From contig CM060734.1 of assembly GCA_030704615.1 (NCBI GenBank), positions 25,482,001 through 25,546,000 on the forward strand: 64,000 bases of DNA, written 5' to 3'. The notes under the pieces are model-generated. The model saw nothing but the letters and a program-made list of their open reading frames with translations, searched no databases and was not told the origin of the DNA. This document shows positions 5,941 to 58,577 of this stretch, piece by piece (position 1 is the first letter of the stretch; the number at the start of each line of letters is the position of its first letter). A program made the position numbers and the translations under genes. This DNA comes from Takakia lepidozioides. Taxonomy: Eukaryota > Plantae > Bryophyta.

Positions 5941-5943
5941 TTA

Positions 5944-6045
5944 TGGCTATTCCCAGGGGGAAGTGGCTATTCCCCTCCTAACTCTACAAGGAAAAAGGAG
6001 GGGGAAATGGCTATTTGAGGGCTATTCCCAGGGGAAATGGCTACT
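5944..6045 (+). repeat. GGCTATTCCC-motif array (copy 1), probable DNA-transposon subterminal region
   Basis: Repeated TGGCTATTCCC/GGGGAAATGGCTA motifs, homologous to 21534-21635 and inverted relative to 27360-27571 and 43160-43310. Confidence 0.6.
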
Positions 6046-6762
6046 ACCAACTAGCAACACAAGTAATAAGAACTAAGTTCACTACTTCTTATGAGGTTAT
6101 TATATGTAAGTTGGTTCTTTTGGCGACAGTCTTCTGTCTCCAAGCTAAGAAACGAATTGTGCTGCACAATGTGTGATATTGGAGATGGATCTTATATGGA
6201 TTGGTGAGCAGGGTGCTCTAAAGGCTGGTAAGCTTGCACAATGAAAAACATGCATGGGGCACATTTGGATATGTTTGTTCATATATGTATTTTGTTGGCC
6301 CCTTGATGAAAAGGTTCTACTATACTCATTTGAACTAACATCTACATTCAACAGATTGAACAACGTGATTGTAATTTAAATTGATGTTCTCAAGTGCATA
6401 ACATTGGTGTCGAATTTGATATACTAATTGCAAGATCTAGATTTGACCTTCGAACATGTATCACACCATGGCAACTCCTCGATCTCAGCATTGCCCCAAC
6501 TGGATTATCTCCCTCTCAGCACAAGGTCCTTTGACGGGAACAACCAATTCATACTGTACGAGATAACAAAACAACAATGTAGTGAGTAGACTACGCATGC
6601 ATACTTAGATAGAATGTATGATCATTGCATGGTCATATGCAACACACAAGGTCTAGCATTTCCAATAAATACTAGCACAACTAGCACGACTAACGCAATT
6701 CACATGCTTCAATACTTGAATCCATGCAGCAGACATGCATGTTCGAGTAACATTGTACCTGC

Positions 6763-7812: not shown

Positions 7813-8159
7813 AGGTGTGCACCAAGCACAACCACAACATAAGGAAAATCATTATACAGGTCATGAGTTCTCCACCGTACAAATAGATATCACGCTTACA
7901 TATATAGATATATACCAGGCATAAATATTAGGCATACATAGATATCTAGATACATATCACGTATATATGTCATGGATATCTTCATAGATATCACGATATC
8001 TCCAAAGATATCATGTGATATCTTCATAGATATCTAGATAGATTTCAGGCAAACATATCATTCATAGATATCTAAGTAGATATCACGCATCTGTAAGTAT
8101 AGATCAATGAGATTTCTGCATAATAATCATTACTATGTATTCATCATGACAAGAACACA

Positions 8160-8340
8160 CTCTAAGAGTCCTTGTGGGACTCTTTTAACGGTAAGGTATC
8201 GCACATAAACAGTCCCCCAAGGACTCTTCGAACTGTTACGTGTTCAAAGAGTCTTTGGGGAACTGTTTATGTGCGATGTCGCGCAAAAAGATTCCTTTTT
8301 CTCTCCATGGATGTAAGAGTTCCCCATGACTCTCTTCTTT
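8160..8340. repeat. Cluster of AAGAGTCC(TTGGG/CCCAA)GGACTCTT palindromic motifs
   Basis: 8163-8231 is approximately the reverse complement of 21696-21765, and the motif core occurs in alternating orientation. Confidence 0.75.
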
Positions 8341-9449
8341 TTCTGGGGCACAAGAGAATAGATTGAAATGGAATTGCTTTGGTGCATTTCCTATTCCTTA
8401 CATCTATCTGAAGCATTGCACATTATTCTACTTCTGGCAATATGCCTCGAGTGGTATTGCCCTTACAAGATCTTAATAGTTGGATTCATATCTTTATCTT
8501 CACGTGCTTGGCATTTTGTGGATTTTTAGTTGTGATTGAACCAAAAGTAACATGCACATATGCAAGAAGGTATGGATGGAGTCATCTTATCCAATCTAAT
8601 GATTCGAGGTATCCTCTTGATGAGTCAGATAACACTGGTTTACTCTAAGAAATTTGCAAACATTCAGAGAGGAGGAAATCAGCTCCCTTCAGCTGATTGA
8701 ACTTGGTTAAGTGTGCTGCATTTAACACCTCATGTTGGCCTAGCTCATGTCCAGACTATGCATCACTTGGGCGGGCCTAGGGAAATTGCAACTGCAAGTC
8801 CAGACAGGCACCTAGAAATGGCGTACAGGGAAAAGGAAGTTATTTCTGCATGGTGGATGAGTATCACCCATTTGCATCACCAACAACAGGCCCAGACTTT
8901 GGGTTTCTTTGAAACAATAATGAGGTACATCCAAGAAAGGGTCATACGCTTACCTTGACTAGATTATATTGACCAAGGATCTTTTCCTCCCAAGCACACA
9001 GAGCAGCTATGGCTTCTTCAAGACTAGCTGTATTACCACCTGGGCCTTTCCATGTGCTACCCCCATTTGCCCTGCATTAAAGAGTCCGAGCCTGTTGTAA
9101 GGTCGTAAATTCTGGTGATTTTTTGCAGCTATCTTTGATTGCATGTAGACTGCTCAGGTTGACGGTGAGATGAAAAGAAACATCCTCTACCCGAAAACAA
9201 AGGAAATAGGGAAAGTTTCTAGTTTGTGTAGAAAATGAGAAGTCAAAATGGGATCTTCTAAAAAGAGAAATATGAGAAAGTTTACCCGAAATATGACCAA
9301 ACAAGTTGGTATTTGTTAGAGAGTTGGGGTCGGTGAGAATGTCTTGATGATTTGCTTATGTCAAAGATGTAAGACGAACTGCACCACAAATGCAGCTGTC
9401 ACCAAGGTCTGTGCTCTTGAAAGTAAATTTGGTGGTCTCTGTCTTGCAG

Positions 9450-11099: not shown

Positions 11100-11560
11100 A
11101 TCCTCTTGGATGCACCAGCGAACAATATCACATATCTCCAGGTGGTGGGTGCTGGTCGGCGACAAGAGAAACACGTGTCTTACTATCCTGACAACAACTG
11201 TTCCCCTGGACAGCTTGAAATACTTGTGCTGCTCCTCCTTCTAGCTGACCATCTATCCATGCAGGTTTATTGTAGCTTTCAATCCAGAGTGCCTCCTCAG
11301 TACGCTTATGCCTGAAATCTGGTCCTCTTGTATTGTTCCACACCCAAACACTCATTTTACGTACTGTCCTCACATCCCAAGAGCCAGAAGACTTCTTGTA
11401 ACCTCTCTCTCTTCGTCTGGAGGTATCTGATTCAAACAATTGTGCTGCTCCTACTTTCAGTTGACCATCGACCCATGTAGGTTTCTTGTAGCCTTCAATC
11501 GACAGTGCCTCTTCCGTGCCCTTCTGCCTTAAATCTAGTCCTCGGGATTGATCTGCACCA
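11100..11560 (-). pseudogene. Chimeric relic: two OSB-type PDF motifs followed by a short NRPD1/NRPE1-like segment
   Basis: RGPDFRHKRTEEALWIESYNKPAWIDGQL and a second degenerate motif. The reverse complement of 11100-11212 closely matches 40065-40170. Confidence 0.7.
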
Positions 11561-13115: not shown

Positions 13116-13639
13116 TGTAACTCTTGGCTAGCTGCACTTCCAACCAGATTCAATAGTTTAAACAGGGAATTCCTGAAGAGATAGAGACAAACAATATGAA
13201 TAGCTGCTCCTCTGCCTCAATCTGAATAGCACAGAACAATGCAACGCAATGCATCCTAGCTTTGGGTTCTGTCTACATACTTCTGCAACCTCTGGCAGAT
13301 CCAGCTGGAAATAGTTTCAACGGAATAGTCAGGGTTTGTGCTATCTCATAGGGGATTGCAATCTCTTCCACTTTTATGAAGGGATCACTTGTGATGACAG
13401 CCCGTGCAGCATACTTACCACTTCCACCCAGAATGTTGTGGATAAGGGAGGTAGCAGAAAAACCTTGACCGGCTCGACTGATATGAGTATCATGTGTTCA
13501 CAAGATGGTCGCCAGACAAATAGGAAACGAGTGCAAGGGAAAACTGGAGAGGCCTTGATGTAACCAAGGAGTCGACACTATCAGTCGATACTAAAAGGGG
13601 GAAAGGGAACGGGAAAAGCATGCTTCGGAAAGGCAGCAA

Positions 13640-13892: not shown

Positions 13893-15665
13893 TCACGCGG
13901 GTTGTATTAAGCGTTGACTTGCATAATCCGCGGCATGTAGTGCAACTTTCATAATTTGGGATTTATCTCCTTCGCCGCACTCCAAAAATAACTTGGACAA
14001 TGCCAAACAGTCTTCAACATGTTCAGGGGAGATAAAATCCATGGCTAGTTTCACAGATGCCTGCACATAACAAATTTCCGAGCAAAAACAATGGAAGCCA
14101 CACATATTAGTGTGCATATGCTTTTGGCATCTCTATAGATAATCATATATACACTTCCGCATCATACCTACTTTAAATAATCATGTATTTGTCTTTCACT
14201 TGAATATACACAACACTGACATCATGGGATTGCAATCCATACCGACAGATTTCGAACTTATGCGGACAACCTGCTGGAAGAAGTACTGCTTCGCCCATTT
14301 TTTGAACGTGCTCCCATGGCTTCAAACCTGTATGTATTAGAAAAATGTATTGGTGACATCTACAAACGCGTATCATAATAACACACAAACCTTAATATTC
14401 ATTTGCGAAAATGGTACATGCATAAGGAAGAGGTGTACCTGTTTCTTCCTGCAAAAGTTTCAACATGGATTTTTTCAAGTAGAACTGGAAAGATAACACT
14501 GGAGGTTTACTAAATGACTTTGGATTGTCGCCTTTTCGACTACCCAATAATTTTCTCTTGTGTTTATTCAAGAAGTCGTTCAAAGTGTCGACTGTGTTGG
14601 CAGGGAATATATGCCACGATGCTCCAGTTTCGGAAGGAACAATTGTTGTTGGAGTATGTACCATGATGTTAATCTGAAAGACAAACTTATATGAATACAG
14701 TGAAGCAAATGAGCTAACTACTATAAGCAACTTTAGGAATATAATCAGAGAAGTAGAACTAGAAAGAATGTAAAGCACGGGGGTGATGAGCTCATGATAG
14801 TACATACCGCATCGGAAAAGTCCATGTGGAGACAGGTAATTGAATCACCATCTCCCTTCTCTTTTTGTTGTCCATATGCAATGTAGGCCTTTGGTCCCAT
14901 GTCGGTTTTTTTAAGGCTACTAGGAAAATATGTAGTTAGGTTTAGAATCCCTTCCAGATGGGTATACTTTGAAATTGGTAAAAGATCTACAAATTCTCTA
15001 TAATGATTGGGAAACACTTCTTCAAAACTGTTGTTAGAAGGCCAATCTTTTAGTTTTAATAATTCATTCGGGACCTTCGAATCATATCCATCAATAAATG
15101 CTCGTAAAGTTAACTTTGGACTTGACTCCCAAGTAGAACATCTAATGATTGTAGGATTAATAGAGGTAGTATGTATATTAACCCTTTTCATACAAGTTCT
15201 CATTCCTCCGGGACTCCAATCTACCTTAGATGAAATAGATACATCATTTATTACCACAGGTTCTTTCAAACGCCAATGGAGTAAGAAATGCTTCAATTCC
15301 GACTCTACATTATTTCATCTAGAAGATGTGGTAGTATATGGCATTTGTTCACTCAAACACCCCTCCGAAATTGAACACATAGCCACAGACATCTCGTGAC
15401 CATACAAATTCTTGTGGTATGGTCCTTTGAGATATTTTGTAGATACGACACTTTGTTAGGTTCAAAAAATGTCTTCATTACTGCATGTTCGCTGGTGTTT
15501 ACACTACAACTATGCTTTAAGACCCCACCATCATCAATTGACCACTCTTCATGGATCTTATTCTCATCTTTTAACTGTAAATAACATGTCAAACATACTG
15601 CTTTATCTGGTTGTTTACGACATTGGATGTGGAAGTCTACTAAAGAGGCTTCGCACATATCACTG
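13893..15665 (-). pseudogene. KDM3/JHDM2-type (IBM1/JMJ24-29-like) JmjC histone demethylase, compact, spliced, with stops/frameshifts
   Basis: Cys-rich CxxCxxSLVDFH..C..VCLTC, HFxxHWxxxEPVVI, LKLKDWP, GILNL..DMGPKAYIAYG..GDSITCLHMDFSDAV|NIMVHT, GASWHIF, GEAVLLPAGCPH (1-bp deletion before VRNL), and SVKLAMDFISPEHV. Confidence 0.9.
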
Positions 15666-15851
15666 CATAACAAAACAAAGAAAGCAAGTGTTAGATTCAA
15701 ACAAACCAACAAACGAAAGACATTGACTCAACGTATTACGGTGTAGACATATCATGTGTACATGTAGTCTCCATCCAAAATTGCCATTTCCGGAGTATAG
15801 TGGCTATCACCTGCGCCCACAACGATTTAATTCATGATTGTTAAATCATCC

Positions 15852-16319
15852 CTACCATATGATCAATAGGATAACCAAGATTTTCTTGAAATCCAAAGAT
15901 CTACATATGAAGCAAATCATGTCATCTATTTTTACGACAACAGAAGACTTACCAATTCTTGACCGTTCAATAGACAATACTTTTTGTTGCAATGCATGTA
16001 GTTCTTGGATTGGCTTGTACAATCTCAACAAAATCTCCGACCAATGGAGTTGATTCTCTGCTTCTTTCAAACGCTTGGAAATTTCTTCTTGTTGGTTTCT
16101 CAAAGCCTTCAAGTTATCTTCCAATTGTGGAATGAATGGTAAAGAATTTGAAGACTCGCTAGCATGAGGTAACGGTTGCACGATGGTACCATGTCCTTCA
16201 ATACACAAAACAACCTCCAAACATGAAGCTAGATTTGCTTCGGATACCCATACTCCAGGCAATGGTATTGTTTTGTTTCTTTTGTTGTAGCCATAACTGC
16301 ACATCAACGTTCCACACAA
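15852..16319 (-). CDS. Hypothetical coiled-coil ORF upstream of the JmjC gene (possibly the same locus)
   Basis: 155-aa ORF with a heptad-rich segment LEDNLKALRNQQEEISKRLKEAENQL. No family recognised. Confidence 0.3.
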   Translation of the reverse strand: MCGTLMCSYGYNKRNKTIPLPGVWVSEANLASCLEVVLCIEGHGTIVQPLPHASESSNSLPFIPQLEDNLKALRNQQEEISKRLKEAENQLHWSEILLRLYKPIQELHALQQKVLSIERSRIGKSSVVVKIDDMICFICRSLDFKKILVILLIIW

Positions 16320-21635: not shown

Positions 21636-21695
21636 TCTCGTGCAAGGGCAGAGAGACAAAAGTGAATATGTGTACCTCATGCGGTTCGCGCGGCG

Positions 21696-21990
21696 CGAAG
21701 AGTCCTTGGGGGACTGTTTATGTGCGATACCTAACGGTTCAAAGAGTCCCCCAAGGACTCTTTCTGCCCGACTCCCCGTTACCTAACGGTTCAAAGAGTC
21801 CTTGGGGGACTCTTTTTCCCATTACCTAACGGTTGGAAGAGTCATTCGGGGACTCTTTTTCCCCGTTACCTAACGGTTCGAAGAGTCCTTGGGGGACTCT
21901 TTCTCCTCGTTACCTAACGGTTCGAAGAGTCCTTGGGGGACTCTTTTCCCCAATACCTAACGTTTCGAAGAATCCCCCAAGGACCCTTTC
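21696..21990. repeat. Tandem array of ~7 x ~43-bp units with palindromic AAGAGTCC..GGACTCTT core
   Basis: Unit TACCTAACGGTTCGAAGAGTCCTTGGGGGACTCTTTT repeated; the core flips orientation in some units. Confidence 0.9.
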
Positions 21991-27571: not shown

Positions 27572-27889
27572 ATATTGCTACTCAGCTTCGACGATGCTTT
27601 GACATTTCTTCGCATTTTTGCTCGATTTCTCTTCTTTGTTCACTCTCAGACAATCACGTCACATTTGTGTGCATTTGCAATGCACGTGCATGCATGGCAA
27701 CCCTACAACTAAAGCTTCCGCTACACAACTACATCGCTGTCCAAAACCACACAACACATGTGCACACCACACACTAGTATACCACTAGTCCACCACTAGT
27801 CTAGCCACTAGTCCAACCACTAGGCTACAACTAGTCAGTCACTAGGCTGCCACTATGCTGCCCACTATGGCAATCACTAGTCCACACAA

Positions 27890-28216
27890 TGATAAAGAAG
27901 AAGAATACAAGCACAAGCTCATGCGAGCTCACAAAGCTGAAGCATAAACTCATGCATATATAACCTCATCACTCAAATACAAGTCAAGCCAAGTGCACCC
28001 CACGCCATGGGGAATCCACACTATGGCGCCATAGCTAGGCGCGGTGAGGCTCAACTCGAGAAAGATGAGCCTCCCGTGCTTGCCGTGAAGATAACCACTC
28101 CAAGGCCTAAATCTACCTTGACCCCTGGTTTGACACTTGGGCCAATCCCAAATGTCAATATGTAAAAGCTAGCTATTTCCTAGCTAGTTTCACACTAGTG
28201 GTAAATTAACTTGACA
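27890..28216 (-). repeat. Terminal repeat A (3' copy), TG..CA
   Basis: Near-identical to 38757-39080 (plus strand TGATAAAGAAG...AACTTGACA). Confidence 0.95.
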
Positions 28217-28218
28217 GT

Positions 28219-28394
28219 TGTCGTGTGCATACATATTGCTACACAACTACATCGCTGTCCAAAACCACACAACACATGTGCACACCACACACTAGTATAC
28301 CACTAGTCAACCACTAGTCCAACCACTAGGCTACAACTAGTCAGTCACTAGGCTGCCACTATGCTGCCCACTATGGCAGTCACTAGTCCACACA
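28219..28394 (-). repeat. Terminal repeat B (176 bp, TG..CA, rich in CACTAG), directly after the polypurine tract
   Basis: Repeated at 27720-27888 (lacking ~20 bp) and full length at 55530-55705. Confidence 0.92.
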
Positions 28395-28655
28395 ATCGCC
28401 CCCTAGCTGGTGCTTAGGTCCCTCTAAGTCCAGGTAGCCACAAGATGTGATAGTGACCATAGCCTCACTAAGTCCTCCACCACTATCCATACGACACTCA
28501 AACTCGATAGATCAAGAGGCCGGGTACAAGAGTTGCCCCATCGTTAGTCGCCGTCTTGCAACCTGTGAAGTTGAGCTTGGGATCTCATGTATTGACTCCT
28601 ATGAGCTTGGCCTCTCATGTCTTGTTAGTTGCCTCCAGTCATGTCCACTGCCACT

Positions 28656-31500
28656 ATCCCAAGCAGTGTGGACACAACCAATCTCCGTCAGGAACCTTCT
28701 CAAGAGGTGGTGTCAAGCATCCCATATGCCAACCCCTTGAGCATCAATCACACACTAGCATGGTGGCTGCCCCTTTGGCAGACCCACAGAGCATGCACCT
28801 CAAACCTGCAGGTACCACTGCTAAGTTTCGGTCAACTCTGCCATTGACATTGGGAAGGTGACATGGCGCACAATTACGCACATGATCCTTCCAAGTCATG
28901 CCATCCCGACCCTCCAAGATCAGGACCCCTGAGGGCAACACCTCTCAAACCCTCAGAATAACACGCCCTGCAGTAACATCCAGAGTCGTAGGAGCAGTCT
29001 GCTGCAAATAAACATAGTCACCAGGGACGATATCCTCCAAACCCCAGGACGATATCCTCCACCACGTATAGTGGCATACCTCAACGTATCACGGTGCTGT
29101 GCAATGACAAGGTTCTCAAAAGCCATGGGCATGACTTTCTTGAACAACTCTGCACGCTGATCATATGCACGTACCCACACGTCCGGATCATTAAGGTTAA
29201 GGACTTGAGCAGTGTCCCTACAAATGGCTGCAGGCAAATCCGGCTCTCGGCCAAAGAGAAGGAAATATGGTGAGAAGGAGGCAAGTGATGCTTGTTTGCT
29301 GAACCTGTAGCCCATGGCTAACCAAGGAACCTGAAGATCCCAATCTCCTAGGTGTCCCTTCTGCAAGCCATACTTGTGCAAACCCCTCTTCACCGTCTGA
29401 ACAACTCTCTTTGCTAAGCCATCAGCCTCATGATAATCCCGAGAAGTGGTGCGGTGGTCTATCAAGGCTTTATCACACAAAGCCTGAAACTCCCCCAAGA
29501 ACTCTCTCCCTTGGTCCGTGAGTACCTCAGCTGGAGCACCAAATCGGCTAAGCACACAATCCAAGAATGCATACGCAGCCCCCTCACTAGCTTTGTTAGG
29601 CAATGGAACCAACTCAATCCACTTGGAGAAGTGCTCCACCATCACCAACACATATCTGTGGTGGCGCATAGTCAGTGGCAACACATACCTGTGCACGCTG
29701 TGTGGGGTGAGGCACAATCCTCACCCGACCATCCTCCCACACTCGAAGTAGGTGTATCCCCTCCCACTTGAACCTCTTGGCTCGTTGCAGGATCCGATCC
29801 CTCTCCTTGGCAGTCACAGTGTCTCCCGTGTCTCCCGTGTCTCATGTGCGGAGGTAGTCCAACACAGCCGAATCCTCATGTATATCTCTGGCACCACCTG
29901 ACTCATCACTAGCCTCAGGGTCCTCAGACACTCCGTCTACAGTCATCCCTGTTGTAGGTCCAACCTGACCTCCCGATGCCAAGATACACAAAAATGCAGA
30001 TGCGTGCCATCCCGACACCATCTCCTCGTCCGTCTCACCATGCCACCGAGCTCCAATGTCATCCTGCTGGCTCATGCATGGATTGCGACTCAATCCATCC
30101 GCATCCCGATTGACCAAACCCGGTCGATGCACAACCTGAAAGTCATACTCCTGGAGTATGAGTTGAGTGGCTGGTGATCCGTGACAAGGGTGAAAAGATT
30201 GCCGTATAGATAGCACCTGAAGTGTGCCACGGCCCACATTGCAGCTAAGCACTCTCCCTTATATGAGCTGTACTTAGCCTCTGCAGCGTTGTTTGAGCGG
30301 CTAGCATAAGCCACTACGAACTCTCTTCCCTCATCATCCACCTGTGTGAGCACCGCTCCAAGCCCCACATGCTCCAATCCGTATGCAGCTGAAAGGGACG
30401 CCCCCTGATAGGTCGTCTCAGGATAGGCGCCGAGGTCAACCTCGCCTTGAGCTCTTGAAAAGCTCGTTCCTGCTCATCTTCCCACTGCCACTCCTGGTCC
30501 ACCTTGGTCAGCTTGGTTAGAGCCTTTGCAATGGTACTAAATCCCTTGACAAACCGTCTATAATAGTTTGCCAACCCCATGAAAGCTCGAACTCGGCTCA
30601 CATCCGTGGGGCGTGGAATTTGTGCAATGGCCTCTACCTTAGTCTGCTGTACCCCCAATCCTCCAGGATATATCATGTGACCCAGATACTCAATCTGGTT
30701 GTGGAAAAACTTGCATTTCCCCGGACAACTTCAATCCGTGCGCTCTCAAGCGCTCCAATACCACCTGAAGGTGTTTCTCTGCTCCTCCATCGTAACACTA
30801 AAGATGATGATGTCATCTATGTAGCACCGAGCAAAGTCCACCCCTGCTAGAATCCTATCCATGACTCTCTGAAACTCTGCAGGAGCATTCTTAAGCCCAA
30901 ATGGTAAGAACCGCCACTGATATAGGCAATCCTTGCCGTGCTCATTGATCCCCCAGAATGTCGTCTTCTGCTTGTCCGCCTCCTTGATGGCAACTGGTGA
31001 TATCCGGATCGTAAATCCAAAGTGCTAAAGACCTTAGCATGCCCGATGGCATCAAAGATCTCATCTGGTGTTGGCATGGCATACTTATCGGACTTGGTCT
31101 GACGATTTACAGGCCGGTAATCACCGCACATACGTCTCTCCCGTCCAATTGCCATAGACATTCTTCTTGGCTGGCATCACTGTGGCTGAAGCATACTCTC
31201 CACTAGAGAGCTCCAACAAACCAGCCTCCCAGAGATCTTGAGTCCTTATCTGAATCAAAAGACCTCTCCATGTCACTGTATCTATAGGGTCTCCGAAAGA
31301 TTGGCGTGTCAGTGGCCAACTCAATACGGATCTCTTGACCCTTCAGTGCTCCCAAGTCCTTCAAACTGAAGGCAAAGCAATTCCTGTAAGCCCTCAGGAA
31401 CCGCCGTATACGTCGTCTCTCTCCTCCGGTGACAATGGGTCCAATGTCAGGCTCCCAATTGTCCTCCGTAACTGCAACCTTAAGTCCAGTGGGCTTAGAG
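28656..31500 (-). pseudogene. pol 3' part: RT, RNase H, DDE integrase, C-terminal PHD finger (frameshifted, internal deletions)
   Basis: CGDYRPVN..FSTLDLRSGYHQ, YIDD, FMGLANYYRRF, LHTDWS, VEHFSKW..FGAPAEVLTDQGREF, and PHD [38 protein letters not shown]. Confidence 0.9.
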
Positions 31501-31523
31501 ATAGAGGACGCGTCCTGTGGTTG

Positions 31524-33041
31524 CTATGTTGCAACCTCTTGAGCAGTACTCCCTACTTGCTCAGTCAATGACAAGGCCTCATCCTGCCCCATCATCTCAT
31601 CCTCAAGGACTTCCTCCACTCGAGAAAAATCCCCAACCTCATCTTTCATCGCCACCTTGGCTGCCAACTCCCTCTGAACCTCGAGCACCTCCCACGTGTG
31701 CCATGGATGCCTGCACCCCGTGGTCCTCACATGCTCGCCCCCACTCACTGCCTGTACCGTCTCGGTAGGCAGAGAGACCATTGAGGGAAGTGTACTCCGC
31801 ACTTTGCGTTGCTCAGCCATAGCCAAGCTGATAATCCAGGTCAAGCAATTGAGATCCATTGCTTGCCCCAACACTTGACGACGTGATGCCTCAGAAAGAG
31901 ACGACACCGCCGTGGTACCAGTGGTAAAACCCATTGCCCGCTCACGCTCGTCAGCATTAGGCTCCACTAACTGCTGCAACTGAGCATCCCACAGGAGGCC
32001 AGGTCCACTATCCCGGAAAGCATGCGATCCTGGGAAGCTGAGCAGTGTAGGTAATGCTGCTCGTGGTTGACCCACCTTGTTGACCACTGCCAAAGGCGAA
32101 CGGTCATCATGTCTCACACGCTGAGACTGCCTCCCTGTGTCCAGAATGCTATCCACTGTGAGATGTGCTGGCCGCTGCACCCCATCAAATGCACGCTTGA
32201 GCAGTGCGGGTGGCATCAAGTTAGTCCACCATAGCCGTGGACGATGAGCCCGTGACCCCACTGTAGCTGTATCTAGCAACACTGCTGACCCAAGCCACGA
32301 CCGGACTTGATGCACACTGGCCATCACCCTGGCCCGAGAATCGCCCATCAGTGGCACATTCTCCAAGATGTATGCTGGAGATACAGCTTGATGAAGCTGC
32401 AAGTGGCGCAAAACCCGCACCATCTCCCAAAACAGACCCGACCTCGAGTCTCGCAATCCATTGCCATGCCCGGCTGATGAATGCCCTTGGCAGGGCCAAC
32501 CTGCCACTACCAGATCAATGGAGCCAACCCGCTCCAAATCCTGCGCCCCCAGCAACGAAATGTCTGCTGGCAAGGCCTGCTGATATCCACGAATTGCAAA
32601 CACTGACAACAACTCAGGGTACCGCTGCACCAACTGAGCAACATGGCGAAGTGAAACGTGTCGTGCAGTCTCATCCCTCTCCACATACAGGTAACGCCGA
32701 ACTCGTACACCTGCCTGTAACACAGCAGCCAATCCGGTGCTGATCCCGCCAAACAAGTCCAGAAGACAAATGTCTTCATCCGGATACTGCCACACAATAG
32801 GTGTGGTGTCCAATGGAGACAACTGAGGTGGTCCTGGTGCAATCCCCCACTCTCCTCCTCTCTGACGGTACAAAAGCCTCCACCCAGGCTTGTTGCACCC
32901 GTCGATCAGCATCCCGCTGCAAATCCTTGCTCGTGCCCCACAATGGAGTCTGAGCAACCATGGTAGGCAACTCCGCCATACCATACATGTCATCCTGCTC
33001 TCCCGGAGGTGGTACATCCTCTGAATGAGCGTTGCCCTCAA
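31524..33041 (-). CDS. C5 cytosine DNA methyltransferase domain (DNMT3-like) embedded in retrotransposon pol
   Basis: Uninterrupted 505-aa frame with motif I LLDLFGGISTG, II YVERD, IV AGWPCQ (catalytic PC), VI YILENV, VIII AHRPRLWWTN, IX ERERAMGF and X RRQVLGQAM. Confidence 0.93.
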   Translation of the reverse strand: MRATLIQRMYHLRESRMTCMVWRSCLPWLLRLHCGARARICSGMLIDGCNKPGWRLLYRQRGGEWGIAPGPPQLSPLDTTPIVWQYPDEDICLLDLFGGISTGLAAVLQAGVRVRRYLYVERDETARHVSLRHVAQLVQRYPELLSVFAIRGYQQALPADISLLGAQDLERVGSIDLVVAGWPCQGHSSAGHGNGLRDSRSGLFWEMVRVLRHLQLHQAVSPAYILENVPLMGDSRARVMASVHQVRSWLGSAVLLDTATVGSRAHRPRLWWTNLMPPALLKRAFDGVQRPAHLTVDSILDTGRQSQRVRHDDRSPLAVVNKVGQPRAALPTLLSFPGSHAFRDSGPGLLWDAQLQQLVEPNADERERAMGFTTGTTAVSSLSEASRRQVLGQAMDLNCLTWIISLAMAEQRKVRSTLPSMVSLPTETVQAVSGGEHVRTTGCRHPWHTWEVLEVQRELAAKVAMKDEVGDFSRVEEVLEDEMMGQDEALSLTEQVGSTAQEVAT

Positions 33042-33054
33042 GCAACTCTCTAGG

Positions 33055-33672
33055 TCAACTCACTGCCGCTGTGAATGCTGCTAGTGTCGGCATCTTGCCT
33101 CGCTGGGCAACCGCAACTCCTCCTATGAACGTCACAGGGAGCTGCACACGCCGGCCCTCCCCTGACTGCCATGCAGGCCTATAGGAAGCTGACTCCTCCC
33201 AAAAATCCAGGGTGAAGCCCATGGGGTACAACACTGCCCCACCAACCAGGACATCGTATGAGACCGCGTCTGTCACAATGGCCTTGGCTCGCATCACTGA
33301 GCCATCTGTAGGGTGATCCGGCCGTAGTCTGATAGCCAACTCACGCCGTGTCATGCCCCGAGCCTGCTCCAATCCTCCCAGAGACGTCTGTATCTGGAAA
33401 GGACAAGGCTCCATATCCGCCTCCGTGAGGCCCAAGCCTGCAATAGCAGCTCTGCCCAGCATCAATGGCTGAGCTCCCGAGTCCAACAAGACCCGCAGTG
33501 GCCGGTACCTCTTGCCTGCCGGTCCACTCAAACAGAAAATGTCATCCTGGTTGTCTAACATGACAACTCCAGGTGTCACCATGGCGCGCTCAATGGCTGG
33601 CCTAGCTGGCAGTTCCATCAACCTGGCAGCTGCAGCTTGCCATGGCGCCGCCGTGGCAGTCTTGACCCTCAA
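33055..33672 (-). CDS. Retropepsin aspartic protease
   Basis: VLLDSGAQ active-site motif and YDVLVG flap-distal motif. Confidence 0.85.
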   Translation of the reverse strand: MRVKTATAAPWQAAAARLMELPARPAIERAMVTPGVVMLDNQDDIFCLSGPAGKRYRPLRVLLDSGAQPLMLGRAAIAGLGLTEADMEPCPFQIQTSLGGLEQARGMTRRELAIRLRPDHPTDGSVMRAKAIVTDAVSYDVLVGGAVLYPMGFTLDFWEESASYRPAWQSGEGRRVQLPVTFIGGVAVAQRGKMPTLAAFTAAVS

Positions 33673-35670
33673 ATCGAGGATCCCTCCGGCACTACACCTC
33701 CCACTATCTCCGCAGAAGATGAAGTAACCTCCCCACTCTCACAGAGTGTAGCTGCCAGCCTGAACACCTCAGCTGTCTCCCCCGGCGTCGCAATCATGGT
33801 AGCCGAGAACAATGGAGCCTGGCACACAGATGTGGCCGCTCCTAGCAGCACACTAGCTGTCGTAGCCTTGGCAACACTAGGTAGTGGTGCTACCCGTGTA
33901 GCTCTCCCCAATGGCATAGTAACCTCCGCCTCGGTAACAGTCGGGCGAGAACTAGGTGCCATGGATGGCGTCGACACTGTCTCCGCCAATGTGAATGACT
34001 GAGGAAGCCTAGCCTGACGGCTTGCCTCCTCACGCTGTGGATCCAACTCCACCTCTGCACCTCGTGGCTCAGGAACTTGTGCTGCTCCTCGAGTCACGGC
34101 TGCAGCAGACTCCACCTGCACTAGTGGTAGTGCTGCTCCACACATGAATCCCATGCCTCCCATATCTCCTCCCTCAGGAGCAGGAGGTGGACCATCCGGC
34201 CTTAGAGCCGGTACCACCTGAGCTGTAGCCATGGCAGCGAGCCTCTGCTCTAGCTGCTGAAGCCGGTTGGCCATGCCTTGGTCAACACCCTGACCTCCGC
34301 GTCCTTGGCCATGTTGAGCTTGCCCTTGGCCTACACCTCGTGGCTGGCCACCTCGTCCTCTTTGGGCTGCTCCACCTCGCCCCCGGCCACCATTGTTCCC
34401 TTGGAACTGGCCTGGGCGCAACTCAGGATGCAAACCATAACACTGGGCCTCTCCATGCCCGTGCTTGCCACAATGCCCACACTGCAACTGTGCAGGCTGT
34501 GCATGTGCCGGCCCTTTGCCTCCCTCTGGGCAATCCTTCTTGACATGGGGTCCTCCACATGTCCAGCACACCACTCCGCCCATGTTGGCCAGCAAATGAA
34601 GGGAGAGACCCCTGCATCTGAGGTCCTCTCTGCCCTTCCCTGAGCTTCACCTGAGCCCCCTTGTTGCCTTGAGCACGTTGAGGTAGTGGTTGGCTAGGAG
34701 CACCACTACCCCGTGGTGTCTCCTTAGCAAATCCCACCATGACCACTCGTTCCTCCACCATGTTGAGCTCTATCCGCTCTGCCAGCAAAAACACATTTGC
34801 TAAGGTGGGTTGGGCCGCTTGTAGGAGAGTTGCATCCCGCACCCTTCTCCTCAGCTCCTTGTCCAATATCCCATACCAGAATTGGACTGCCTGAGCTTCC
34901 GTAACCCCTTGGGTTACATTTATCAAGCGCCTCATGCGAGTGAAAGCCTCCCTCAAGCTCTCAGTCGGCTTCCGTTGGAACTCTTGCAAGCTCCGCAACT
35001 TCTCTGTCCTCACCCCTTGGTAGTTCCCTCTCAACTCTTCGAAGAACTCCACAACAGGGTTGAAGGCAGGCACGGGTACTAGTGTTGGTGCGGTAGTGGC
35101 TTGGGTGGACGTCGTAGCTACTGTACCACCAGTCCCACTAGTCCCACTGCTACTTGCTGAAGCTGCCGGTGCAGCGGCAGGTGTAGCCACTGCCCTCGTG
35201 GCTCTAGTGCCCCTAGTGATGGAGACATAGTCGGGTGACCAGTACATCCTCCACTCCTCGATCTCAACCTCATGCCCCCGCCTGAACTCATGGTAATCAT
35301 CCATAAGCGGCCCCTCAAGGTGCTGAAACAGCCCCTTCCATGCCATGAAAGGCGTAAATAGTTGTGGATTGCGCATTTGCTGCAAATCACACCAACTATC
35401 AAACTCTTGGATAAAATCATCCAACTCGATGGTGCCCACCGCCCCAGAGTACCTTCGTGGCCCCTTGGTAGCTCCATACATCTCCTCCATTGTGTCCCAC
35501 AACAATGGCAAAGAAACAACTTGCACCGCCGGTATGAGTCCTCCTGATTCACAATCCGAATCAGAACCTTCCGTAGAAGACACAGGAGGTGAAGGTGGCC
35601 TAAACCGCACACCTCGTCTCGTGTACCCACTAGTATCGCTAGTGCTCGAACCGGCACTGTCCCCTAGCAA
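33669..35670 (-). CDS. gag with two CCHC zinc knuckles (frameshift near 34590)
   Basis: Capsid-like FQRKPTESLREAFTRM, then CWTCGGPHVKKDC and CGHCGKHGHGEAQC. Confidence 0.85.
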
Positions 35671-36359: not shown

Positions 36360-37385
36360 TGCCTCACGAGTCAGCACAGGCCGTCCACAGGTCAACACGG
36401 GCCACCACAGACCAGCACACACCCACACAGCTCACTGGTCACAGCCGTCACAGCACCCATCACAACCCCAAAGACCACAGGCACAGCCTGTCACAGCCCT
36501 ACAAAGGTCACAGGTCACAGCCCCAAAGGCCACAGCTGTCACAACCCCTCACCCACAAAGTCACAGCCACAGCCTGTCACACACCCACAGCCCTCCCACA
36601 CAGGGTCACAGCCCTCACAACGTCACACAACACCGTCAACAGCCTGTCACAGCCCTCACAGCCCTATCACAACCCACAGGCCACATGGCCAACCTGTCAT
36701 AGCCCCTCATAGCCCTACAAAGGTCCACAGGGGTCACACAGCCTCACAGCCCCTCACAGCCCCACAGGCCACATGGCATAGCCTGTCACAGCCCTTCACA
36801 GCCCGCCACTCACACACAGCCCGTCACACACAGCCCCACAGCCATGGGCACAACCTGTCACAGCCCTCACAAACATCCCCACAACCACAGGGCACAGCCT
36901 ATCACAGCCCGTCACAAGCCCCACAGTCCACAGGGCCAGCCTATCACAGCCCCTCCAGCCCGTCACAGCCCCACAGGCCATAGGGCACAGCCTGTCAGCC
37001 CCCACAGGCCACAGGCCACCAGCCTGTCACAGCCCCCACAGCCCATCATAGCCTTCACACAGCCCATCACGCCTGTCCACAGCTCGCCCACACAGCCTGT
37101 CACAAGCCCCTCACAGCCCATCACACCCCACGGGCCATAGGGAACAGCCTGTCACAACCCCTCACAACCCCACAAGCCACATGGCACAGCCCGTCACAGC
37201 CCCATAGGCCACAGGCACAGCCTACCACAGCCTGTCACAGCCCATCATAGCCTGTCACAGCTCGCCTCAGCCTGTCAGAGCGTCACAGCCCCACAGGCCA
37301 CAGGGCACAGCCCGTCATAGCCCCACAGGCCACTGGGCACAGCCTGTCACAGCCCCTCACAGCCCCACAGGCCACTCATGACAGT
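36360..37385. repeat. Low-complexity (CACAGCC/GTCACAGCCC)n tandem array in the retrotransposon 5' leader
   Basis: About 1 kb of degenerate CACAGCCTGTCACAGCCC repeats. Confidence 0.9.
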
Positions 37386-38756
37386 TTAGCCATTTCTCCA
37401 AGGGGTTTAGCCACGCCAAGCTAGGGTTTGTGTCTCTTGGACTCTAGGCTTCTTTGCACCGAGCTATGGCGGCTGTGAAGAAATCAGCAAGGTATTCTTG
37501 CTCTTTCGGCTCCCACACACCACCAATAGTAGACCTAAGCCATGAGGAAGATGGTTGCCACAAACCAAGCCTTCTTTCTCACTTAGACTCCCCAAACACG
37601 CCACTAAACTCAATGGCAAACAACCAAGCCTTGCTGGTTTCCAGCCCTTGTGAGCACTCATTCAAGCGTTTCCCTTGGCCATAGCATCTGTCTTAGAGCC
37701 TATTCCAGCCCCTACACCTGCCACTTCAAGAGCCATGCTCTATCTAGGCTTGAGGTTGAAACCCCAACTCAGAACACGCTCTACAAGTGTCGGACTGTCA
37801 CATAAGAGCAGATCAGCCCCTTACCTTCTCTTCTAGTTCTCTAAAGCTTGAAAACAAAAGCCCAATGGACTGAAGGCATGCTCCACACATGCCCCACTCT
37901 CACCACCAGAGAATCAGCCCCTTTGCTTTCTTTCTTGCACCCACCAACCTGAAAATACACGCTTCAGCGGGCTGGAAGCATGCTCCACACATGCCCTACA
38001 GGGAAACCAGCCCCTTCCTTCCTTTCTTGCACTCCCAAACCTGAAAGTACAAGACTTCAACAGGCTGAAAGCATGCTCCACACATGCATTGCTCTCACAT
38101 AAGGGAAGTCAGCCCTTCCCTCTTCCTTGCTTGCCCTCCAAGCTTGAAGATGGAAGCTTCAATGAGCTGAATACATGCTCCACACATGCAACCTCTTCAC
38201 ACAAGAGGTATCAGCCCCCTATCTTGGCTCCTTAGCTCCTTGATGCTCTCTAAGACAAGACTAAGCACTCCACAGCCCTTGCCAAGCCCCTGAAACCCTA
38301 AGGCTTACATTTCCAGCCGCAAGACACTCCTCTTGTGGTGCAAGAGCTCTTCTTCCAAGCTCTGAAACCCTAGGTGTACATTCCATGGCCTTGCCGCACC
38401 TCTTAGCTCTTGTTCCAGCCCTGCTCTTGCCATGACAAGAGCCCTCTCAATGCTGAAGCTCGAGATTGAAACCCAATCTCAACATACTCCACAAAGTGCA
38501 CTGATTTGCCCCAAGCCAAATCAGCCCTTTCGCTTGGTCTTGCAATCTTGCAGCATGGTGCTTTCATCTCTGAAGCTGAAGATCAAATGCCAAGGTCTAC
38601 CACCTCGTAACCCACATCGCCTCCGCTTCTAACAACCAAGAGCTCCACGGTGCTCCTTGCATAACAACCTGGTTTCTCTCATTCTCAAGCAAAAACCACA
38701 AGTGCTACAAGTAACTCGTATCTGGCACTCACAGATACGAGCTCATCTTTCTCGAG

Positions 38757-39080
38757 TGATAAAGAAGAAGAATACAAGCACAAGCTCATGCGAGCTCACA
38801 AAGCTGAAGCATAAACTCATGCATATATAACCTCATCACTCAAATACAAGTCAAGCCAAGTGCACCCCACGCCATGGGGACCCACACTACGGCGCCATAG
38901 CTAGGCGCGGTGAGGCTCAACTCGAGAAAGATGAGCCTCCCGCGCTTGCCGTGAAGATAACCACTCCAGGGCCTAAATCTACCTTGGCCTTCTTTGACAC
39001 TTGGGCCAATCTCAAATGTCAATATGTAAAAGCTAGCTATTTCCTAGCTAGTTTCACACTAGTGGTAAAATAACTTGACA
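38757..39080 (-). repeat. Terminal repeat A (5' copy)
   Basis: Direct repeat of 27890-28216. Sense reads TGTCAA...TTATCA. Confidence 0.95.
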
Positions 39081-39959: not shown

Positions 39960-42900
39960 GAGGCAATCCCCTATGACATAGCACAAACCCTGACTATTCC
40001 AGAGAGAGTCACCAGCTGGACTGCCAGAGGTTGCAGAAGTATGAAGACGGAACCCAAAGCTAGGAGCTGTCCAGGGGAACAGGTGTTGTCAGGATAGTAA
40101 GAGACGTGGTTCACCTGTCGCTTTGCCAGCACCCACCAGCTGGAGATATGTGATATAGTTCACCGGCGCCTCCGAAATGGAGATTTGGTGTATGCCAATG
40201 GGCCACCATCAGTCCATGCGCACTCTCCAATGGCCTAACAAGTGGTGTTACACTCAGGTATCGTGCTGGCGATAAATCCAATGATTTGTCCTCCATACAA
40301 TGCAGATTTTGATGGGGACATTCTTTCACCTTTTCGTTCCACAATCACTGGAAGCCATGGCTGAACTACAAGAGCTGATGACACTGCAACAACAAACGAT
40401 CAGCTCCGAAGGAGGGCAGCCGCTACTTGGACTTAGCCAGGATACTCTGCTTGCTGCTCACTTGATAACTAGCACTAAGGTGCTATTGGACAAAGTTCGT
40501 TTAGTGCAACAGTTGACTATGTGGGCATCGGTCCCACTGCTAGAAGAAACTATCGTCAAATCGCTTGAAGGAGGCCTTTCTAGACTGGAGTTCAAATGTA
40601 TGTGTTGACATTGCCAGCAGGTCTTGACCGAATCAGCTGATGACAAGGTTCTCATCAGGAATGGCGAGATTTGAAGTGCACCGACTCCAAATGGCTGCAA
40701 GGAGGTAATGACAGGTGGGGCGAAGAGGAGCCCTAGAGCTGTTAAAAGTCAGCCAAACGCATTCTACATACCTGGCTATCATTGCAAGGCTTCAGTGCAA
40801 GGCTGCCCGATTTCCTTGTGCCCTTGGACTCAAAGTAGAGACAGAATATGTTGTGCGTTGTCAACATTGAGTGTCTTGAAAGGGCGATGTACCAAGCTGT
40901 GGAGCAGATGCGATGCCTAATCATCCATGAAAGTGGATTTTGATCAATGCTTTGGTAGATCTATCGTTGACCTGACGAGCTTCACCAAAAAAGTGACTAA
41001 CGTGGAGGATGCCATAAAAAAGCATTTGAAGCCTCTGCTGCCCACATAGAAGATATTCTCTCTAATACCATGCAGGGTGGTGGAAGCTCACTGCTTGATA
41101 TGGCGAGGTCAGGAAGCAAAGGTTCTACGCGTAAACTGGTGGAGCAGTGTGCTTGCATGGGGCTTGAGCTATATAAAGGTGAGCATCTGCTTCCCTTCGC
41201 ACGAGTGCAACATGAGGCAAAGACAAAATTTCAACTGACCAAATGCTGGGAGGCTCATGGATTTGTACAAGGATCATTGGTAGATGGATTGAGAATTTTG
41301 GAGCTTTTCAACCACACCATTGCCAACAGAACTGGCATACTTCGCAAACATGTAGAGGTGATACAACCGGGAACTCTTTTCAACGCCTTTTATATGCTAT
41401 TCCTCAGAGATACATATTGCGTATGATGAAATTGTCCGTAGTCAGTAGTGGGCAAAATATTGTACAGTTCTGTTATGGTAGCTTCGACACAATGGACGAG
41501 GGCGGAAGTGACTCTGTGCAGGGGTTCAAATGGAGTCAGTCAAAACTGGCAAGTGAAGCAGTTGGAGTGTTGGCAGCCAGTGCCATATGTCAGGCAGCTT
41601 ATGAGGTTATGCTGGGATAATCCTTACTTGAGTGGGTCTTTCAAACATCGGCGGCTCGAGCGCGTGCAGGTATTTGAGTACCACTAAAAGGGCCATCTTC
41701 GTTTGAGAGCCTTAGCATGTGAAGTGCATAATCTAGTCTCACCTGCTGCAGATTTGGTGCATTTGATTTATGGAACCTGTTTACAAATATAGAGGACTGC
41801 TCTTTGAAGTCATTGGTGGACTAACATGTGCTCGTGCAAACCACAGGAACTCCATATCCCTGGTTGATGAATGCGTCATGATTAAGCTTGCCTTATGTGA
41901 CTGCTTGAAGCCTTGGTGTCACGAGAAGAAAGTGCTTGAAGTTCAAGACCACTTATGGAAGATTCCTCTCAAGATGCTTGTAAGGAAGCTCACTAAGAGG
42001 GGGATAAATTATAGTCATTTAATTGGTTTTACCATAGGCTTATGACTACATATATTGTGCCCAATGCACGTTATTATGCAATGTGCAGAAGGGGCCCATT
42101 GGGGTAGGGAGCATGAAGTATCAGTTTGGTAAGGAAGACAAAGGACCTGCCGGTAGCATGGTTTTAACTCCTCTAGTGTTGCAAGTTACTGGGTTGTCTC
42201 TTACCATGCATTCCACCCTGAAATTTTCATGTCTGTGCTCTAATAAGTGTTACAGAGTGGTTTTTGCATGCTCTCATATGATGAATCACTTGTTATATAC
42301 GAGGTTGGCAGGTTTTGGAACATGAAGAACCTCCGTGTGGGAATGAATGGTGCATTGGTGCGTTTGGCAGGGTCAACTGGGTTGGGTGTGTTGGGTTGTG
42401 AAGGGTAATATTCCCACCTGCAATTATATTAGGACAACCTCATGCCCGAGGCTTGGTGCCAAGTGATCCCTTTCAATGTTGTATGCGATGTCAGGGATGT
42501 ATGAACCTCAAGGAGAGAGCCCTAGATAGATGCAACAACTGGTGGGTGTGAGTGCATGAGCTGCAGCCAGAAATGTTCTTCCATAAATCCAGTATTCTAG
42601 GAACTGCCTGCAACGCAATTTCAAAAATATAACTTGGTGTAGACCAACATCTTTGCCTCTCTCTGCTTGTGCCAGCTCTTCTCACTACCCCCAACTCTGT
42701 TGTTTTTCAGTACTTGAACCACATATGTGAAAACTGATTATGACAATTGTGTTGAGAATTTCAGTGAGGGAAATGCCTCATGAGAGGCCACCCTTATTAA
42801 AAATAACATTGTCAATGGCAGTGGCAGATATGAAATGTGAAGTCTTTAGTCATGTCGATCCATGGATGGAAGGAAAATGAAGAGTGATTCTCCAAATCTA

Positions 42901-55529: not shown

Positions 55530-57384
55530 TGTCGTGCGCATACATATCACTACACAACTACATCGTTGTCCAAAACCACACAACACATGTGCACGCCACA
55601 CACTAGTATACCACTAGTCCACCACTAGTCCAATCACTAGGCTACAACTAGTCAGTCACTAGGTTACCACTATGCTGCCCACTATGGCAGTCACTAGTCC
55701 ACACAATCCCAATCTCCTAGGTGTCCCTTCTGCAAGCCATACTTGCGCAAACCCCTCTTCACCGTCTGAACAACTCGCTCTGCCAAGCCATCGGCCTCAG
55801 GATGATCCCGAGAAGTGGTGCGGTGGTCTATCAAGGTTTTATCACACAAAGCCTGAAACTCCCCAAGAACTCTCTCTCTTCGTCCGTGAGTACCTCAGCT
55901 GGAGCACCGAATCGGCTAAGCACACGATCCAAGAATGCATACGCACCCCCCTCACTAGCCTTATCAGACAATGGAACCAACTCAATCCACTTGGAGAAGT
56001 GCTCCACCATCACCAACACATATCTGTGGTGGCGCATAGTCAGTGGCAACGGTCCTGCGAAATCAAGATTCCACCTGTAGCCCAATCCCATGATTGATAA
56101 AAGATGCAACTGTGGTGTAGGGGCGTTGAATGAAGCACACACCCTGTCACACACCATGCACCTAGCCACGAACTGTTGCACCTCTGTGTACATACCACGC
56201 CACCAATATTGCCCCTGCAGTAAACTGTGAGTGCGTCGCATTCCAAAATGCCCCAACTCTTCATGGGCATGCCTCACTAACCGTGCACGCTGTGTTGGGT
56301 GAGGCACGATCCTCACCCGACCATCCTCCCATACTCGAAGCAGGTGTATCCCCTCCCATTTGAACCTCTTGGCTCGTTGCAGGATCCGATCCCTCTCTCT
56401 GGCAGTCACAATGGCTCTCGTGTCTCCCGTGCGGAGGTAGTCCAACATAGCCGAATCCTCATGTATATCTTTGGCACCACCTGGCTCATCATTAGCCTCA
56501 GGGTCCTCAGACACTCCGTCTACAGTCATCCCTGTTGTAGGTTCAACCTGACCTCTCGATGCCAAGATACACAAAAATACAGATGCGTGCCATCCCAACA
56601 CCATCTCCTCGTCCGTCTCACCATGCCACCGAGCTCCAGTGTCATCTTGCTGGCTCGTGCATGGATTGCGACTCAATCCATCCGCAACCCGATTGACCAA
56701 ACCTGGTCGATGCACAACCTGAAAGTCATACTCCTGGAGTATGAGTGCCCACTATGCAAGCTTCCCCGTAAGCTTGTCTGACTCCATCAACCACTTGAGT
56801 GGCTGGTGATCCGTGACAAGGGTGAAAAGATTGCCGTATAGATAGCACCTGAAGTGTGCCACGGCCCACACTGTAGTTAAGCACTCTCCCTCATATGAGC
56901 TGTACTTAGCCTCTGCAGCGTTGTTCGAGCGACTAGCATAAGCCACTACGAACTCTCTTCCCTCATCATCCACCTGTGTGAGCACCGCTCCAAGCCCTAG
57001 CATGCTCCAATCCGTATGCAGCTGAAAGGGACGCCCCCTAATAGGTCATATCAGGATAGACGCCGAGGTCAACCTCGCCTTGAGCTCTTGAAAAGTTCGT
57101 TCCTGCTCATCTTCTCACTGCCACTCCTGGTCCACCTTGGTCAGCTTGGTTAGAGCCTTTGCAATGGCACTAAATCCCTTGACAAAACGTCTATAAATAG
57201 TTTGTCAACCCCATGAAAGCTCGAACTCGGCTTACATCCGTGGGGCGTGGAATTTGTGCAATAGCCTCTACCTTAGTCTGCTGTACCTCCAATCCTCCAG
57301 GATATATCATGTGACCCAGATACTCAATCTGGTTGTGGAAAAACTTGCACTTCCCTGGATGCAACTTCAATCCGTGCGCTCTCA
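55530..57384 (-). mobile_element. Second, partial copy of the DNMT-gypsy family (end of RT, RNaseH, integrase N-half, repeat B)
   Basis: High identity to 29340-30750. Retains the integrase HHCC (HAHEELGHFG..CMVCD). Ends at the full repeat B, 55530-55705. Confidence 0.92.
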
Positions 57385-57519: not shown

Positions 57520-58160
57520 GAGAACTTGAAATCAACCTTGTGTCAACACGAGGTTGATTTGCGAATGGAAGTGGATGATTACGGTTTTATTTTTTATTTT
57601 TTATTTTTTTCCCAATTGTTTTTAAAAAAAGACGCAGGATGCAAATCAACCTTGCGTTGACGCAAGGTTCATTTGAGGAATGAAAGCATCATTTTTCCAA
57701 AAAGAAAAAAAGAAGAAAAAAAAAATTGAAGTCGCAGGATGTAAATCAACCTTGCGTTGACGCAAGGTTGATTTGAGAAATGAAAGCATCATTTTCAAAA
57801 AAACAAAATTAAAATAAAATAAAAATTGGAGTCGCATGATGCAAAACAACCTTGCGTTGACGCAACCTTGATTTGAGAAATGAAAGCATATTTTTTCCCA
57901 AAAAAAAAGTTGAAGTCGCAGGATGCAAATCAACCTTGCATTGAGGCAACCTTGATTTGAGAAATGAAAGCATCATTTTTGCACTGTATTTTGCATTTTG
58001 TATGAGACACAATCAAGGTTGCGTTAACACAACCTTGATTATGCTATGGATTTCAATCGCCTCTTTCGGGAAATAAATCTTCGTCTTGCTTAGTGTTTCG
58101 TGTCTTCTAGTCTTTTGGGAAGTTCAGGGATCAACCTTGCATCAACGCGACATTGATTAC
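57520..58160. repeat. Array of palindromic AAATCAACCTTGCGT-TG-ACGCAAGGTTGATTT units (~85-100 bp period) with A-rich linkers
   Basis: Perfect 15-bp-arm hairpin at ~57743-57774, with degenerate copies near 57530, 57643, 57843, 57926, 58011 and 58130. Confidence 0.85.
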
Positions 58161-58577
58161 AAGGGGGTTTAATGGGAATTAACAAGCACCTGCTGCATCT
58201 GTGTTTTCTGAATGTATGGTTCAGGTACATCTACCATATCCTCATTCCGGGGAAGTACTTGAGCGATGATCCTTGATAATACATCCAGTCTTTAACCATC
58301 CATTCATCCATTGTTCATGCATTGCGAAGCATATGTCTATCCATCAGTCACCTCGCATTCAACCATTCATGAATTATTCCTCCATCATTCATCGATTATT
58401 CATCCAACATTCATCCAGCAGTCATCCAAGTACGCATGATATGTACACTCATTCCCACGGAAATAGGTCTCACGGGGCTTCCTTATCTGCGATTGTAGGC
58501 CCATGCACCCTATTACGTGAGCATCTTTCCGCTCACGGATTGGCATCTTCCCGCTCACGCATCTTTCCGCTCACGGA

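Follow-up and report, generated by a model that had tools for sequence, protein, structure and literature searches.

A decayed Ty3/Gypsy retrotransposon with split direct repeats in Takakia lepidozioides and evidence that it probably primed its own reverse transcription

The element and its coding regions

The window, by which we mean the whole 64,000-nt stretch of Takakia lepidozioides DNA analysed here, carries on its minus strand a decayed Ty3/Gypsy retrotransposon whose repeats are arranged A-ORFs-B-A-B. Profile searches of the ORFs in the window give the domain order gag-PR-DNMT-RT-RH-IN-PHD, in reading frames broken by frameshifts. The order gag-PR-RT-RH-IN with a DDE integrase, as expected of Ty3/Gypsy, is present both in the window and in its relatives; one full LTR at each end, also expected of that group, is absent, the layout being instead A-ORFs-B-A-B or A-ORFs-B. 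The 5' end of the element is formed by repeat A1 (38757..39080, minus strand, as are all features of the element given below), which is 324 bp long, starts with TGTCA, is 96% identical to 27890-28216 and has boundaries that were checked against the relatives. Within the 3-kb leader beyond it (window 36380-37410 and 37795-38220), short units form a degenerate tandem array and some four repeats of 100 bp are present.

The gag region (33672..35670) is frameshifted and spread over two frames, with a weak match to PF03732 and homologues in Marchantia, Sphagnum and Calypogeia, and is followed by an aspartic protease region (33058..33738) that has an LLDSGA motif and is matched by PF13650 in the relative L001. 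Between protease and reverse transcriptase (RT) sits a C5 cytosine DNA methyltransferase (31527..33059; PF00145, E 2e-12), which is followed by an in-frame TAG. The RT and RNase H region (30093..31523; PF00078, PF17917, PF17919) is broken by frameshifts, and the decayed DDE integrase core carries a C-terminal PHD finger (28663..29720; PF00665, E 3e-12, and PF00628, E 9e-7). The 3' part of the element begins with a polypurine tract (PPT), a run of G at 28396..28404 that abuts repeat B1 (28219..28395, ending in CACGACA) and is found ahead of B1 in all families of relatives. A 2-nt spacer (28217..28218, CA-AC-TG) separates B1 from repeat A2 (27890..28216), and the end of A2 is abutted directly by repeat B2 (27720..27889), the last ~19 bases of which are missing from the window copy along with the target duplication.

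Several minor features of the coding region may be recorded here. The in-frame stop between methyltransferase and RT lies at 31518-31526 (minus strand) in the window and at 3489-3497 in L001, the next codon is CAA in 20 of 35 rows (some of them duplicates), and the context in the window and in L001 fits the CARYYA readthrough motif. In one family of relatives (F2, see below) there is an ATG two codons past this stop, and in L059 (12386-12659) the protease nearly abuts the RT and a methyltransferase match is absent. The window also contains a second, deleted copy (55530..57384, minus strand), in which an RH-IN fragment is fused to B and which ends exactly at the CACGACA of B; we rejected it as proof of integration of a one-LTR circle, because a deletion into B2 explains it equally well. 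The family of the window element is multi-copy in organism A, where the summed contig depth exceeds that of the flank next to it by a factor of, roughly, several hundred (X1).

Relatives and phylogenetic placement

Relatives were collected at one locus from genome contigs and at 80 loci from metagenome contigs (the best 80 of at least 224 confirmed); four scans of viral contigs gave no match. The copies fall into four families of repeat A, namely F1 (the window), F2 (14 copies counted), F3 (10 copies) and F4 (L001). The last of these is a contig of 9285 bp with a plant-type element and long open frames in an assembly titled as a cyanobacterium, where it is probably a binning contaminant. The two ends of this contig overlap by 127 nt and it is probably collapsed, so that it was rejected as evidence of layout and used for junction and pairing sequences only.

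Searches with the window proteins give named homologues in Calypogeia, Marchantia, Riccia and Sphagnum, which points to a bryophyte host. An RT tree built from 56 rows (45 of 120 homologues, picked by name or domain label, plus 11 loci; midpoint root) groups the window and the loci with Marchantia and Calypogeia proteins at a support of 100/98, and the long branch of the window in that tree is ascribed to its frameshifted RT. Rows that bear a chromodomain or SH3_Tf2 form a separate clade (100/100) in this tree, which is without named Tf1 or Tcn1 rows, and Klebsormidium nitens is joined weakly (80/77). The pol homologues include K. nitens proteins with 55% and 50% identity to L001, the best solved match of which is the Ty3 RT (E 2e-77). 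Elsewhere in the tree are three proteins (P0339, P0342 and P0349) that combine a Gypsy pol with a PHD finger and PF05869, which we take to be an adenine methylase family.

A primer-binding site that matches the element's own repeat

The original prediction was of an element that lacks a tRNA primer-binding site (PBS) and has in its place a perfect 16-nt complement to its own terminal repeat. That complement is real: the sequence directly after A1 (38741..38756, minus strand; plus-strand GCTCATCTTTCTCGAG) is the exact reverse complement of a site within A1 (38921-38936) and of its counterpart within A2 (28055-28070), and these three are the only such sites in the whole 64 kb. Pairing runs one base further inward, to the last base of repeat A, for a total of 17 nt, and then ends. 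Given the base composition, a 16-nt complement would arise by chance in a 324-nt repeat, with 6 offsets allowed, at a probability of ~5.5e-7, and none of 150 control 24-mers taken from the leader scores as high as the PBS. The absence of a TGG-type PBS was likewise borne out, since TGG does not occur in the first 8 nt past A in any of 23 copies (the window plus 22 related copies). ARAGORN found 0 tRNAs in the window and 2 doubtful "tRNA-Stop" calls across 37 relative loci, and a search of Rfam gave nothing meaningful.

Three parts of the prediction need to be qualified, of which two are treated here and the third, the DIRS alternative, further below. The 16-nt match stands as a feature of the window, but the working duplex is shorter, at 11-12 nt; this core is indicated because some copies of the window family break the pairing at position 13 (at least two contigs in X5 and at least one each in X2 and X4, all contig loose ends) and because the pairing of the relatives drops at position 12. 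The conserved core would thus occupy 38745/38746-38756 in the PBS and 38921-38931/38932 in the site in A (38921..38936, minus strand), which we predict to be the first 11-12 nt of the RNA, i.e., the self-primer. Among the matches listed for the window family, the sole change within either 16-mer preserves a G-U pair. The second part concerns a hairpin with a 10-bp stem just past the PBS, which does exist in the window (38715..38741, minus strand; arms 38715-38724 and 38732-38741, 7-nt loop; z -2.05 against shuffles in a 61-nt window) but is poorly conserved, with z at or below -2 in just 3 of 23 copies, and which we therefore rejected as a conserved element.

Covariation of the duplex across families

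Conservation of the pairing among copies was one of the checks on which the original prediction was to stand or fall, and the pairing held across all four families. Since MAFFT misaligned F3 with respect to the other families, the end of A served as the anchor for the count of pairs, and the primer site was located by family motifs that were picked after the best matches had been seen. The count omits probable same-locus duplicates (L022, L037, L041, L044, L053 and L078), keeps two probable same-locus pairs (L020/L025 and L045/L052), and leaves out L006 because the family motif was not found there. In this anchored count of 26 copies (the window, L001 and relatives from the best 80), in which F1 and F4 rest on one locus each and copies inside a family are related, positions 1-11 are Watson-Crick paired in 81-100% and position 12 in 46%.

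In every family the duplex starts at the first base past repeat A and its partner is a fixed site in the copy's own repeat A, so that the complementarity to its own repeat seen in the PBS of Tf1/sushi elements is found here too. With its own repeat a PBS forms on average 10.0 of 11 pairs, as against 3.5 with the repeat of another family (378 comparisons; the maximum of 9 is between F1 and F4), and 3.1-4.0 of 11 when slid 1-3 bases out of register; in old copies the pairing with the own repeat falls as low as 6 of 11. The corresponding unanchored score is a mean of 11.7 of 14 for the own repeat (27 copies) versus 9.3 for that of another family (402 comparisons, maximum 12). The majority duplexes of the four families differ on both sides of the duplex, with two double changes between the window and L001, and further double changes are seen inside families, in L065 and in the second element of L032. 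We observed separately that in L032 and L078 (~4600-8500) a complete F2 element has directly upstream of it an F3 fragment consisting of repeat A, PBS, RT and RH.

Predicted transcription start and folding

Of 33 repeat copies (36 tried), 23, belonging to F2, F3 and F4, have a TATA-like motif that starts 39-41 nt upstream of the primer 3' end. The usual spacing from TATA to start is ~30 nt, and the combination of this spacing with the observed offset would put the start 11-13 nt before the primer 3' end, at the edge of the duplex that is conserved. The motif is missing at -39 to -41 in the other 10 of the 33 copies, and other offsets recur as well (e.g., +129 in 15 copies). In the window, the position at which the relatives carry the TATA-like box is degenerate (TTATCT, 38955..38960, minus strand), and a better match lies ~95 nt downstream, beyond the primer site (38823..38830, minus strand), at an offset that the other families do not share.

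When RNAs are folded from the predicted start, all 8 copies folded give the duplex a mean pairing probability of 0.67-1.00. Inclusion of the whole repeat lowers this to at most 0.02 in 4 of the 8, as the primer site is then enclosed by a local hairpin. This hairpin (38905..38945 in the window, minus strand; z -5.42) lies over the site in 7 of the 8 folded copies, with all four families represented, and on such folding models it may hide the primer site of A2, a masking that is seen in just 4 of the 8 whole-repeat folds.

Priming by the element's own RNA

In Tf1, the primer consists of the initial 11 bases of the element's own RNA and is released by RNase H (PMC7175516, PMC4600332). We consider it likely, on sequence grounds, that the window element primed in the same manner, i.e., with the 11-12 bases at the start of its own RNA rather than with a tRNA, because its repeat-matching PBS has been conserved by paired changes across relatives. 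The tRNA-independent priming of the original prediction, in its Tf1-like version, is thus supported by compensatory change across families, by the register of the duplex and by the spacing of the TATA-like motif. Transcription would start near 38932, and the 5' end of the RNA would fold back onto the PBS, where RNase H is predicted to cleave after base 11-12. Strong-stop DNA would then transfer to A2 and the plus strand would initiate at the PPT, to give an ordinary two-LTR cDNA in which each LTR equals B+A.

The site in A2 is identical to that in A1, and the two are indistinguishable from sequence alone, which leaves room for a scheme in which the 3' part of the RNA folds onto the PBS, is cut or terminated there and primes, with transcription starting elsewhere in A1. 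The better TATA match of the window, downstream of the A1 site, is in keeping with such a scheme; by the TATA spacing in three families, however, transcription would start at the duplex's 5' edge, and the local hairpin can enclose the site once upstream sequence is included, so that we regard an A2 partner as improbable. Slightly less probable still is a structural role for the duplex, as a fold for packaging, dimerisation or strand transfer, with priming by something else such as a tRNA fragment. Half-tRNA priming, which does not depend on a TGG, occurs in plant Copia lineages (PMC6317226), but the four different PBS sequences each follow their own repeat, and the duplex abuts the end of A exactly, at the point where A2 too terminates. 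Finally, the proposal that the 16-mer is a DIRS-like internal complementary region (ICR), which restores the termini and closes a circle, can be set aside as very improbable: the repeat layout is indeed DIRS/PAT-like (PMC5890265) and the primer of DIRS-1 is given as unknown (PMC7192593), but an ICR repeats the outer termini (PMC7192593) whereas the partner here is in the middle of A (145-160 of the 324-nt repeat), the integrase is of the DDE type with integrase-type ends and target duplications, and no tyrosine recombinase was found in the scanned ORFs of the window or in the two main ORFs of L001.

Ends, junctions and the origin of the split repeats

Among the best 80 loci there are 11 relatives with both ends, which start with TG (one mutated) and end with CA or its decay product TA. 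They are flanked by target duplications of 4 bp, 9 of the 11 perfect and 2 matching at 3 of 4 positions, and readings of 5 bp or 3 bp fail. The relatives thus have the TG...CA ends and 4-6 bp duplications of Ty3/Gypsy elements, and the window copy, from which the end of B2 is missing, has lost them. At each of the 11 distinct B-A junctions, CA and TG (or the decayed forms of these) stand 2 nt apart. The end of A2 corresponds to the start of the PBS after A1, and the start of B2 to that of B1 after the PPT, to within ~2 nt in 9 of 10 cases; among the matches listed, contigs across the A2-B2 junction have no inserted PBS remnants at a level of 1% or more.

The one exception is the rearranged copy L012, whose join contains 9 nt of the PBS plus 6 further bases. 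In this copy (15170-16066), which has a perfect target duplication, foreign sequence and an inverted stretch of A come before the second A fragment, and this fragment starts approximately at the first base past the predicted primer, with an ambiguity of several bases in the breakpoint. This rearrangement may be a fossil of mis-jumped strong-stop DNA.

Judged by transversions, the nearest neighbour of a repeat is usually the other copy in the same element (B1/B2 in 11 of 14 cases, A1/A2 in 12 of 14), as would be expected if both copies were remade in each cycle. The integrase likely cuts inside a former LTR, since the ends are TG...CA with 4-bp duplications, the B-A junction reads CA-nn-TG (the spacer at 28217..28218 being the predicted cutting site in the window), and the A-B junction joins a PBS-defined to a PPT-defined end. 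We lean towards a scheme in which the two blunt ends of the cDNA would be joined, with creation of the A2-B2 junction, and the integrase would then cut the internal CA-nn-TG of the left LTR, to yield A-ORFs-B-A-B with a 4-bp duplication.

Joining of the ends also predicts a mirror form, A-B-A-ORFs-B, and this was seen at 0 of 21 distinct 5' ends (relatives from the best 80, L001 excluded), an asymmetry that counts against the scheme. It could be accounted for if the extra B arose instead by a template jump of the RT between cDNA ends, or by host repair after integration, and there were no free two-LTR circle. The same explanation, which bears on the layout only, could account for the 9 distinct loci that end PPT-B-flank, without A2-B2, as compared with 10 that continue into A2; 4 of the 9 were checked and all have a target duplication. 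This short form could, however, also come from recombination between B1 and B2, from assembly collapse or from one-LTR circles, the nearly exact A2-B2 joins (to within ~2 nt in those same 9 of 10 cases) are compatible with either route, and direct evidence for a template jump or repair is lacking, so that we consider this origin of the layout rather unlikely.

Comparison with known elements

Both the type of element and self-priming are already known, each on its own. The Gypsy element KnitGypsy-Dnmt3 of K. nitens has a methyltransferase in pol and DIRS-like A-ORFs-B-A-B repeats (de Mendoza et al. 2018, PMC5890265), and the window element resembles it in both its C5 methyltransferase in a Gypsy pol and its A-coding-B-A-B repeats, with the difference that the nearest named homologues of the window are liverwort and moss proteins. 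In the accessible part of the main text of PMC5890265, the term "primer binding" does not occur and no mechanism of priming or integration is given. With Tf1/Tf2, Tj1 and the Tf1/sushi group, including the plant lineage Tcn1, the element shares a repeat-complementary PBS with an 11-nt core and the lack of a tRNA site (PMC7175516, PMC4600332, PMC6317226). In Tcn1 the LTRs are ordinary, a chromodomain is present (100%) and the duplications are of 5 bp (PMC6317226), whereas the window element has a PHD finger where a chromodomain would follow the integrase, a methyltransferase, split repeats and, judging from its relatives, 4-bp duplications. It would work like Tf1 and yet is not classed in the Tf1/sushi group, since it has no chromodomain, its repeats are split and the duplication is of 4 bp.

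The accessible part of PMC6317226 predicts self-priming in plants in Tcn1 and TAR only. In TAR, a lineage of Ty1/copia, it is predicted in 89% of elements, and this lineage differs from the present element in having the Copia domain order, ordinary LTRs and 5-bp duplications (PMC6317226). The split direct repeats, A1-ORFs-B1-A2-B2, are shared with PAT, Ngaro, VIPER and DIRS (PMC7192593); those elements use a tyrosine recombinase, whereas here there are a DDE integrase, a protease, a PPT, TG...CA ends and target duplications, and neither the recombinase nor an ICR matching the outer termini, by which DIRS, PAT and Ngaro are recognised, was found. The non-chromovirus Gypsy lineages Phygy and Selgy likewise have non-seed-plant hosts and 4-bp duplications, but their primer is tRNA-Trp or tRNA-Ala, and NCGN, the target of Phygy (PMC6317226), is found in 0 of 11 duplications here. 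Identity with Troyka, which has CG...CG ends, a 3-bp duplication and animal hosts (PMC12440569), was rejected in view of the TG...CA ends and 4-bp duplications found here.

We found no literature that joins this type of element with self-priming, in a search outside of which lay most subscription journals and Repbase; the accessible parts of bioRxiv 10.64898/2026.05.21.726589 and PMC2864245 do not do so, and no account was found of how methyltransferase-carrying Gypsy elements prime or integrate. We suggest, quite tentatively, that the element represents a green-plant Gypsy lineage with self-priming independent of Tf1/sushi and with an integrase that ignores the cDNA ends and cuts an internal CA-nn-TG after end joining, in which case a standard LTR cycle would yield DIRS-like split repeats by circular permutation. 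If this were true, a self-priming lineage would be added beyond Tcn1 and TAR, and ordinary LTR replication could yield split direct repeats without a tyrosine recombinase. The analysis predicts a primer, an integrase site and, to a precision of a few bases, a start site, all of which are testable in liverworts and mosses that carry relatives.

Neighbouring DNA

The window includes other features besides the element. Amid repeated DNA at 40250-41620 (plus strand) there are frameshifted fragments of an RNA polymerase largest subunit (Rpb1_3 and Rpb1_4, with NADFDGD at 40299-40319), which are possibly a captured or processed gene copy and of which partial inverted copies lie at 11108-11215 and 13254-13359. 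Tandem repeats are present as an array of 100-nt units with a palindromic core (57529-58169), an array of 43-44-nt units (21691-21989) with inverted copies at 8157-8277, and 1025-bp units with 120-bp subrepeats (10-2630).
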